From Deinococcales bacterium (lineage in GTDB: Bacteria; Deinococcota; Deinococci; Deinococcales; JAAFIG01): DNA of 64,000 nt. Of the stretch, positions 18,001 through 21,000 are shown piece by piece. Made by a program: the position numbers. The stretch spans positions 1 to 64,000 of the forward strand of contig JANNVX010000098.1 in assembly GCA_031414595.1 (NCBI GenBank), in the 5' to 3' direction. The stretch's first letter is position 1, and each line of letters starts with the position of its first letter.

Positions 18001-21000
18001 TGGTGTGCTGAATGTGGCAGGGGCAAATTTGGCGGTGGTTGACCCGCGTGGGCGTTTGGCTCAAGCCCCCGTTGTGCTTAGTTTGGAGCATCATTTTGTT
18101 GAAATAACCCACCCTAGGCGGTTTCTACTGTGGGTGGATGCGGTCGAAGAATCGCTTGAAATTGCGGCTTCACAAATCGAAAAAATCAATACCAGTGCTG
18201 GCTCGGTAGCTTCACAATTGGTACGTTTTGCCGATGAAACCTTGCCGTTAATCAGCCCAGAGGTTTTTGACCCTGGCGAGCTAATTCGGGCTTAACAATG
18301 GAAGCCCTTGAATCACGTTTATTAAAAATCATTGAAAATGCCACGGGCTTACGCTTAAAAAGTAATCAAGTTACCCAGAGTCATGCGTCTTTATTGCAAC
18401 TCAGTTTAGAGCGCAACCAAGAACCTTTAGAAACGCTTGCATGGCTCGAGTCTGAACCACTTATACTCGAGCGTTTTGCAGCCCAATTTACGATTCCAGA
18501 GACACATTTTCACCGTATTCAACCACAGATGCAGGTGCTGCGAAAGCGCGTCTTACCAAGTCTATTTCAGTCACGTTTACCGCGTCGGGCATGGCGTTTC
18601 TGGTCGGCTGGGTGCAGCAGTGGAGAAGAAGTCTATACCCTGATTATTCTGGCACTCGAGTTCTTAAACGAACAACCTTGGCAACTCGAGGTCTTAGGCA
18701 CAGACTTAAACCCCGTTATTCTTGAACGAGCCAAAGCTGCGCTGTACAACGAATGGTCTTTTCGGGATACACCGATGTTGTGGCGTGAACACTGGTTTAG
18801 CCAACAAGCCGATACTTGGCAACTGAATGAAAAAGTGCGCCAATATGCCCGCTTTGAACTGCTGAATTTAATTGCCGATGCTTGGGCAGTACCATCAGAA
18901 ATGGATTTAATTTTATGCCGCAATGTCACGATTTATTTTTCTAATCGCACGGCGCAAAAAATCTATGAACGCCTTGCGGCTCGGCTCAGTATGGGCGGCT
19001 GGTTAGTCTTAGGACCTTCTGACCCACCTCCGACTCGGCAGACTTTAGAAAAAGCCAATTTACAACCTGTTTTTGAAGATGGCGCAATTATTTGGCAACG
19101 GGTCTCTCAAGCCGAACTGACCCCACATTTGGCTCGAGTCCCGTGGCTTGAAGAAGGCACAGCCACAAAACACCCAAGTTTAGAGTTTATGCCGCGTCCC
19201 AGTAAAACCCCAAGTTTGGAATTTATGCCTCGGGTCAGCAAAACCCCAAGTTTGGAATTCAAGCCCAAGCAACCGACCCTCGAGATTCCACGTCGCCCAC
19301 CAACCAAAGAAACACCGCCAGCCAACGCCACTGTTGAACTGCCACCTTATGAACCACCAATAGACCCAAACAGCCCTCCACCAGTTGTTCATAGTCAAAA
19401 CAGCCAAACCTTAGAAGGGCTTAATTATCTCGAGCAGAACAAACCACAAGCTGCCCTAGAGGTCTTACGCCGAGCCGCTTACCTAGAACCCAACGACCCT
19501 GTGACCCAATTTGCACTGGCTCGAGCCTGCCTGATGCTTGGTGATAAAAAACGCGCCCAAACTGCGCTGCGCCAATCGAGGCGTTTAATTGCTTCACTGC
19601 CAGATGATGCGCTTCTATCGCTCGAGACCACAGTCAAGGATTTGCACCGCGCCTTAACTGCTCTTGCCAATCAATTGCGTTAAATGATTCTCACATTCCA
19701 ATTCTGTTTACATCGTATTCTAAACTTAATTTATGAATAGAATTACATTGAAGTTTCCCCGCCCACTGCCCTCGTTTGACTCGAAAGGCAAAGAAAAACC
19801 CATGCCTTATTTTGATTGGGATGGCTTATTTGAGGAACTTCGCAACACCTTAGAACCAAGATTAACCGATAATCTAGGTGAAATTGAACTCGAGCTTGAA
19901 CTGGCAAACAGCGCCGATATTCGTGTGACTGGTAATTATATGGGCATGAAAACTGTACAGGTACGCGAAATGGTCTCGGAAATGCTTGGCGAAGCCATGG
20001 AAGGAATAGACACCACCGCTTACGCAGTCCAATAAAAACATGTTCTGACAACTCGAGACCATGTGTTCTTGGCACTCGAGACCAGATTGGTTTAGAATGG
20101 GTACATGAATGCGCCAATGCAAAAACCAAATCTACGCATTGCGCTGCTGATTGCTCGAAAACCACTGCGCGGCTAAGTGCTGCGCCTGAACCCATGTCCA
20201 TTTGCGCTGCTCGAGACCTTTTTACGAGCCACATTCGACAAATGTTTTAAGGAGTTTTATGTCCGAAATCCATGAACAAACCGCGTCACGCCTGAATAAC
20301 CTTGCTGCCCTCGAGAAAGCTGGTTTTGCCCGTTTCCCATACACGTATAACCAAACGCATTCGGCGGCTGGTCTGCACGCCGACCATCCTGTTCCGCTTG
20401 AACCCAGTCTGGAATGGACTGAGGAAAAAGTCAGTCTGGCAGGGCGAATTATTTCTTGGCGTGATACTGGAAAACTGATTTTTGCCGATTTACAAGATCA
20501 GTCTGGCAGAATTCAACTGTTTATCTCCAAGAATGCTGTACCGCAATTTGATGCCGCTAAATTTATTGACCTAGGCGATATTCTTGGCATTACTGGGCAT
20601 CTGATGACCACCAAGACGGGAATGCTTTCGGTCAAAGTGACTGGTTTTACGCCGCTCGTGAAGTCGTTACATCCTCTGCCAAGCGATTATTATGGCTTAG
20701 CCGATAAGGAGTTGCGTTACCGTCGCCGCTACTTAGATTTAATTGTTTCACCAGACTCGAGAAAGGTGTTTTTGACCCGCAGTAAAATTGTGCGTTTTAT
20801 CCGTAATTTTTTGGATGCCAAGAGCTTCATTGAAGTCGAAGGTCCAACCCTGCAAGCCATCGCGGGTGGCACAGAAGCCAAACCATTTGTGACCCATCAC
20901 AATGCGCTTAGTCATGATTTTTCGTTGCGAATTGCCCTCGAGTTACACCTAAAGCGCCTTTTGGTTGGTGGCTTTGAACGGGTTTATGAAATTGGCAGGG

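Follow-up and report, generated by a model that had tools for sequence, protein, structure and literature searches.

Why should two copies of a 23-bp sequence stand head to tail just upstream of a lysyl-tRNA synthetase gene, and why should about 100 other loci of the same genome hold tandem repeats of nearly the same unit length? The window analysed here was the whole stretch of 64,000 nucleotides at positions 1 to 64,000 (forward strand) of contig JANNVX010000098.1 (C98), from Deinococcales bacterium assembly GCA_031414595.1. This genome (G000) is a bin of 4.49 Mb in 120 contigs, and its G+C content is 47.2%. The locus at 20041..20084 is a head-to-tail pair of imperfect 23-bp repeats (TRF: period 23, 1.9 copies, 86% matches, 9% indels). 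It begins 5 bp past the stop codon of a 100-aa open reading frame on the plus strand (19733..20035), in which a Pfam scan matched 0 families. The start of lysS (20259..21740, plus strand), which encodes a class II lysyl-tRNA synthetase (Pfam PF00152, E 3e-90; PF01336), lies 175 bp downstream of the repeat. A consensus scan returned a putative promoter at 20069..20098 on the plus strand (TTGGCA, 18 nt, TAGAAT; 10 of 12 positions matching), and the first hexamer of this promoter-like site sits inside the last repeat copy. The stretch GATTGGTTTAGAAT was constant across four genomes except at its first position, a G that is replaced by T in G001 and by A in G003. No Rfam family was matched within the window. 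Searched against named genomes, lysS had matches of only 45–54% identity, spread over many phyla; a protein atlas assigned no taxon, and a photosystem reaction centre was looked for and not found, which excludes a photosynthetic cyanobacterium. Four genomes of the same genus were aligned over the region upstream of lysS. The flanks aligned, and the unit was present in 2 copies in G000, 4 in G005 and 2 in G001; at the same site G003 carried a 27-bp unit in about 2.7 copies, the matching DNA there being only 71% identical.

Exact runs of at least 14 bases were counted across the whole 4.49-Mb genome, with one detection threshold for every offset. Offsets 19 through 29 yielded 0, 3, 28, 7, 32, 62, 27, 14, 22, 3 and 0 runs, respectively, such that offsets 23–25 held 121 runs versus 3 at offsets 19–20 and 3 at offsets 28–29. 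The listed runs at offsets 21 and 28 were visibly heptamer arrays. As a control, 80 loci of unrelated bacteria, 1.38 Mb in total, yielded 0, 2 and 0 runs at offsets 23, 24 and 25. Perfect duplications across the genome numbered 12 of 23 bp and 16 of 24 bp, identical to the counts reported in a first-pass annotation of this DNA, and its claim of a sharp, sequence-independent preference for 23–24 bp was reproduced by our own offset scan. That annotation had listed 91 loci with a period of 22–26 bp; the pattern was recovered and the count was not, since TRF returned 116 non-redundant loci (overlap merging probably differs). It had also given 0–5 perfect duplications for each period from 13 to 20, which failed at period 14, where the raw count was 15. 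This excess probably reflects heptamer arrays counted at double their period, like the runs at offsets 21 and 28. Unit length outside genes was 23.9 ± 1.9 bp (sd; n = 117). Using our own crude gene calls (ORFs and codon usage), loci not deep in genes numbered 10, 5, 32, 31, 15, 7, 10 and 1 at periods 21 through 28, respectively. Head-to-tail copies of a single unit, as in minisatellites, were found both by TRF (on the window and the genome) and as exact runs at a fixed offset. The length peak was confirmed as real and above chance.

Several further arrays were called by TRF within the window. A 23-bp unit (2.9 copies) at 609..676 was classed at a gene 5' end, and a perfect 24-bp unit (2.1 copies; exact run of 27 at offset 24) at 14689..14739 lies inside an ORF call. 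The array at 15869..15928 (25-bp unit, 2.4 copies) includes, by stop position, the stop codon of a minus-strand gene and has an equal copy number in G005; that at 17229..17273 (23-bp unit, 2.0 copies) is of equal length in G005 and G001. Near a gene 3' end, a 24-bp unit is present in 2.0–2.4 copies at 30723..30782, and the apparent orthologue of this array has 3.0 copies in G001 and 2.7 in G005. Two arrays were classed deep in genes, one a 24-bp unit repeated in frame (35098..35157, 2.5 copies) and the other a 27-bp unit (60255..60305, 2.0 copies).

Units from loci not deep in genes were compared with one another, with control segments and with the rest of the genome. Ninety-two of 100 units were unrelated, and the remaining 8 belonged to two small related families; the earlier description of the units as mostly unrelated was borne out. 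With the families set aside, the best k-mers were enriched only about two-fold. No common motif was found among the non-deep units, and hairpins were in no excess over control segments. Copies of units elsewhere in the genome matched control segments in both length and frequency, and an origin by copying from other genomic sites was rejected on this distribution. A REP/MITE or iteron family was likewise rejected, given that kinship was confined to the two small families. CRISPR arrays were rejected because the copies abut without spacers, and the true CRISPR arrays of this genome have periods of 69–72.

The palindrome CTCGAG occurs 326 times in the window versus 7.4 expected, and four or five of the nine window units contain it. 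Across the genome there are 23,235 sites (one per 193 bp), and the sequence is also hyper-abundant in G006, G010, G013 and G011 (4.0–6.4 per kb). Genome-wide, 27 of 181 units contained CTCGAG versus about 12% expected, after which a link to the repeats was dropped. The spacing from one CTCGAG to the next showed at most a weak excess at 21–27 bp. The abundance of CTCGAG and the 24-bp duplications look like independent phenomena.

Repeat positions were then expressed relative to the gene calls described above. For periods 23–26, 49 of 110 loci lay at gene 3' ends and 25 deep in genes, versus 9% and 79%, respectively, in 5000 random placements, in agreement with the placement at gene boundaries claimed in the first-pass annotation. 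Among 100 non-deep loci of period 22–27, the stop codon of the adjoining gene call fell inside the repeat at 40; another 12 start 2–29 bp past a stop codon, and 4 end 5–23 bp short of one. Loci deep in genes had periods that were almost exclusively multiples of 3, with 31, 21 and 7 loci at periods 21, 24 and 27 versus 3, 1 and 0 at periods 23, 25 and 26. When the duplicated segment includes a stop codon, neither the protein nor anything downstream is altered. Repeats with periods of 13, 14 and 16 had a share of 3' ends among their non-deep loci similar to that of the repeats of about 24 bp. Because so many loci hold a stop codon, and because other periods are similarly placed, the bias towards gene boundaries looks like tolerance rather than targeting. 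A published survey describes tandem repeats as enriched just outside prokaryotic coding regions (PMC12418385).

Turnover was assessed in thirteen 20-kb regions of G000, chosen for holding repeats, by comparison with G005 and G001. Large orthologous matches were mostly 85–99% identical, and G005 was usually the closer relative. These regions contained 29 G000 loci of period 21–27, and comparison with one relative or both was possible for 24 of them. Approximate whole-unit differences in copy number were observed at 19 of the 24, and together with the difference upstream of lysS these uphold the earlier claim that copy number changes between close relatives. At C60:26819, for example, G000 and its relatives had 4, 2 and 1 copies, and at C64:76369 they had 3.3, 1.2 and 1.3. 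Arrays were also present in G005 where G000 is single-copy (e.g., a 25-bp pair and a 27-bp triple), and in G001 the unit was wholly absent at two loci. At C64:44785 and C41:30587, the copies within one genome share changes that are missing from the orthologous array. Over the whole of offsets 23–25, short runs of 8–9 nt were barely enriched and long runs were enriched, from which it follows that arrays are lost rather than left to decay. The arrays are quickly born and lost. The spectrum of indels between G000 and G005 or G001 had bumps at 21–27 bp and 45–53 bp on a broad background, as measured in regions chosen for repeats and with an over-strict tandem test; repeat censuses of G001 and G005 are biased in turn, as their samples were picked around G000 repeats. 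Bacterial VNTRs, the minisatellites used in strain typing, are similar in having head-to-tail units of tens of bases that are mostly intergenic and that change by whole units between close strains. They differ in that here about 100 loci of unrelated sequence per genome share a unit length within 2 bp, and in that the preferred length shifts with genus.

Samples of 0.3–0.4 Mb were taken from each of six relatives, and exact runs of at least 13 bases are given here for four of them. G006, of the same genus, had 11 runs at offsets 21–27 and none at 7–20 (400 kb). The preference for about 24 bp was not private to this genus: G010, from genus g4 with 62% G+C, had 11 runs at offsets 22–27 and 7 spread over offsets 12–20 (400 kb). 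G013 (genus g3; 400 kb) had 7 runs at offset 15 and none truly at 22–27, its sole run in that range, at offset 26, being a 13-bp repeat detected at double its period. G011 (genus g5; 350 kb) had 6 runs at offset 15, three of them from one array, and 2 at offset 14. The first-pass annotation had reported a preference for 15 bp in another genus, which holds for G013, and G011 adds a second genus with this length. A length specific to genus points to a heritable determinant.

Junctions were examined in 54 distinct perfect duplications from G000 and from pieces of four relatives. End homology was 0–2 nt in 20 of the 54 and 3–10 nt in 24, with the other 10 being multi-copy; end homology of at least 3 nt is expected by chance in about 5%. 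Clean blunt duplications were seen against single-copy orthologues at C41:14545 and C60:26819. In three cases (C109:52212, G005 L281:3922 and C78:21863) the junction carried 1–2 odd, mismatched nucleotides. At C64:81741, C64:76369 and C12:3562, comparison with single-copy orthologues showed a change from ABA to ABABA in which A is 5–8 nt, and this structure was present in about half of the junctions. Flap-processing defects in yeast rad27 mutants are described as producing ABA to ABABA duplications, with the reverse deletion also seen (PMC5677150). The likeness to these rad27/FEN1 mutants is the doubling of a unique segment that lies between two short direct repeats, as at the 24 junctions here with 3–10 bp of homology. 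In yeast the unique part is anywhere between 1 and 91 bp long, without a set length (PMC5677150), whereas here the length is fixed; the two also differ in the 20 of 54 junctions here with 0–2 bp of homology and in the presence here of the Pol I 5' nuclease domain. The latter domain (PF02739; predicted Pol I type 5' nuclease activity) was present as a single match in all 19 of the genomes searched, in open frames of 837–1102 aa except in G008 (635 aa, on a short contig). By gene presence in these 19 genomes, no flap nuclease was missing or obviously defective.

The first-pass annotation offered no mechanism for the repeats, and this still holds: what can be put forward are candidates for the ruler. 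Tentatively, and at a confidence somewhat short of probable, the observations are best read as a mutational process with a length set by a protein, combined with a selective filter and fast slippage. The repeats would be young tandem duplications (minisatellites), and a lineage-specific process would copy a stretch of set length beside itself regardless of sequence. In this genus and a second one the set length would be about 24 bp; in two sister genera, about 15 bp. Selection would spare duplications only where 23–25 extra bases are harmless, namely across stop codons, in spacers and, for in-frame 24-mers, within genes. From two copies on, slippage or unequal exchange would rapidly gain and lose whole units. 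The most economical source of the length would be a replication or repair intermediate whose size is determined by a protein, for example a displaced flap or repair patch that escapes removal and is resealed into the DNA, with the 3–10 bp of end homology helping when present (ABA to ABABA). The length peak, the unrelatedness of the units, the filter on location, the turnover and the kinds of junction are observed. That the peak is mutational, and what the ruler may be, we infer; contigs alone do not separate mutational bias from differential survival.

Some observations count against a mutational process with a protein-set length. With the Pol I type 5' nuclease present in all 19 genomes, no flap defect is evident. 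The blunt or near-blunt junctions (20 of 54), and the three with a mismatch of 1–2 nt, are poorly explained by annealing. The rad27 parallel is also loose, the unique part there being reported as anything from 1 to 91 bp and not sharp (PMC5677150).

A broader proposal, to which we give guarded and slightly lower credence, is that the family has an undescribed, ruler-bearing DNA transaction that makes fixed-length tandem duplications at arbitrary sequences, its ruler having switched between about 24 and about 15 bp among genera. The candidates for it would be two staggered cuts of an integrase-like kind, or an excision patch or flap of fixed length that is resealed. Dual-incision excision repair yields oligomers of fixed size and is a further candidate source of the length. 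No description of such a pattern was found in the literature, most subscription journals being outside the search.

Among the alternatives, cutting and filling survives best and is nevertheless unlikely. An integrase, transposase or paired nickase would cut the two strands about 24 bp apart (about 15 bp in the other genera), and fill-in would double the interval without any insert staying behind. A length fixed within 1–2 bp and dependent on genus is what enzyme-set target-site duplications look like, and the 20 blunt or nearly blunt junctions, along with the odd nucleotides at C109:52212, G005 L281:3922 and C78:21863, are in keeping with it. Cas1-family integrases are comparable in that the length of the duplication is fixed by a protein ruler and scatters by about 1 bp. 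Cas1-Cas2 duplicates the CRISPR repeat during spacer integration; the CRISPR repeats of G000 are about 35 nt, as estimated from repeat-plus-spacer units, and not 24. Casposases of the Cas1 family are described as making 15-bp duplications, or 13–16 bp off target (PMC5137440), and the casposon value of 15 bp is the mode in two genera here. Unlike the products of Cas1-family integrases, the repeats have no element or spacer between copies and no shared target sequence. Cas1 is present in G000 and was not found in array-bearing G005 or G011, both of which are incomplete genomes.

Cutting and filling also fared poorly in searches for an element. Bounded direct repeats of 18–30 bp placed 100–6000 bp apart gave 42 candidates, with no peak at 23–26 bp and no recurrent insert family. 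An element with a target-site duplication of 23–26 bp was rejected, as no insert flanked in this way stands out. Only one mobile element is abundant, a MITE about 200 bp long (roughly 60 copies); its flanking duplication is only tiny, and the element does not fit as the source. The earlier verdict that target-site duplication lacks support was therefore retained for want of any flanked element, and the blunt junctions keep cutting and filling as a rival. Rejoining of blunt ends needs end joining, and no match was found to Ku (PF02735) in 31 genomes or to ATP-dependent ligase (PF01068) in the 8 genomes of the genus, G000 included (genomes 57–100% complete); fill-in with Ku/LigD end joining was rejected on these results. 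The 3–10 bp of end homology at almost half of the junctions is not predicted by cutting and filling.

Ordinary slippage followed by filters appears quite unlikely. Here duplications of all lengths would arise, short loops would be repaired, long repeats would be recombined away, and a narrow window of lengths would be left. Fast loss of arrays was observed and end homology is common, both as expected. Efficient RecA-dependent recombination in E. coli has a minimal length of about 23–27 bp, which we counted in favour of slippage with filters. Both edges of the distribution are very steep, at 5, 32, 31, 15, 7, 10 and 1 loci outside genes for periods 22 through 28. The 23–25-bp arrays are themselves highly unstable and are therefore not a protected class, and why sister genera should have another window, at 15 bp, is left unexplained. 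Chance direct repeats of 8–9 nt were about equally common at every spacing of one codon phase, so ordinary slippage offers no reason for 24 bp.

Retention of doubled 24-bp sites for regulation or protein binding, for example as promoter elements, was judged very unlikely. It draws on the lysS locus, where the last copy bears the −35-like hexamer of the promoter-like site and where a repeat is kept in G003 in matching DNA that is 71% identical. Against it, no sequence is common to the units, copy number varies freely with one copy or none in close relatives, and 40 of 100 loci merely span stop codons.

An artefact of assembly or sequencing, which the first-pass annotation had feared as the collapse of copy numbers in short-read assemblies and for which one may cite the bin of 120 contigs and the labelling of the runs that hold the genome as freshwater sediment metagenome, is highly improbable, as copies are often imperfect, orthologous arrays with other copy numbers occur in separately assembled relatives and the 15-bp class is present in the single-contig genome G013, to which may be added a second assembly that matches 14300–30772 without difference, with four window arrays exact, and that is possibly built from the same data and not independent.

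A sharply defined length in a mutational signature is usually a pointer to a single enzyme and the geometry of that enzyme. The signature in this family is strong (about 100 loci per genome), young and different between sister genera, and no repair or mobile-element gene that was found explains it. If the peak is mutational, a comparison of genera with the 24-bp and the 15-bp length could identify the protein responsible for that length and reveal a new way in which bacteria acquire small duplications. If a ruler does act, the minisatellites would be a readable mutational signature of the enzyme responsible. The loci can also serve, as they stand, to mark strains at high resolution in this uncultured lineage of freshwater sediment.

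Related 23-bp units (CAGGTGC...GGTCAAGA) were found in two to three tandem copies, with similar flanks, at about eight intergenic loci of the source genome, among them C1:38608, C72:10580, C26:54889, C17:331, C56:5396, C86:41861 and C64:21755 (contig:position). These are probably the units that the first-pass annotation had linked to a 37-nt repeat. A 16-base core occurred exactly three times in the genome, at C56:3928, C95:41791 and C113:9923, each time within a separate 23-bp tandem repeat and with differing linkers. A unit related to these core-bearing repeats was present at C41:30587 and was entirely missing from G001, a genome of the same genus. 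This subset of the 23-bp repeats may have been inserted and not copied locally.

A MITE of about 200 bp was present in roughly 60 copies in the source genome (complete copies, e.g., C31:27143-27342 and C11:135-380); it has two G+C-rich hairpins, and its terminal inverted repeats are about 25 bp long. Its flanking duplication was 2–3 bp at most, and many contigs of the assembly terminated in it. In G005, also of the same genus, one copy directly adjoined the array orthologous to that at C106:52091.

Tandem arrays of heptamers were likewise numerous, period 7 accounting for 251 TRF loci (e.g., C41:118366-118530 and C46:14024; units such as TTTCGCC and GCCTTTT). In the window, a 36-bp coding repeat at 19166-19259 (2.6 copies; peptide PSLEFMPR...) encoded part of the linker of a CheR-TPR protein. 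At C106:67920-70900 there were four occurrences of a 25–27 bp sequence, spaced 673, 714 and 1569 bp apart, in what looks like a cassette array. CRISPR arrays were located at C101:615-1293, C82:70754-71719 and C11:14225-15492 and comprised two repeat types, each of about 35 nt as read off the repeat-plus-spacer units; the Cas1 genes lay on C18 and C82.

Hexamers were counted across the whole source genome. CTCGAG ranked first by a three-fold lead, with 23,235 copies (1 per 193 bp), and hexamers containing GGCC were nearly missing. The window held 326 CTCGAG copies against 7.4 expected (e.g., at 19889, 20052, 20075, 20210 and 20310). CTCGAG was equally abundant in G006, of the same genus, and in G010, G011 and G013, of other genera, although G+C content spanned 45–62%. 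Spacing from site to site had a period of 3, indicating that CTCGAG occupies a fixed codon phase. A hyper-abundance of CTCGAG of this kind was not found described in the literature searched. The motif looks like a six-base counterpart of HIP1, the palindrome of cyanobacteria, here in a non-photosynthetic lineage.
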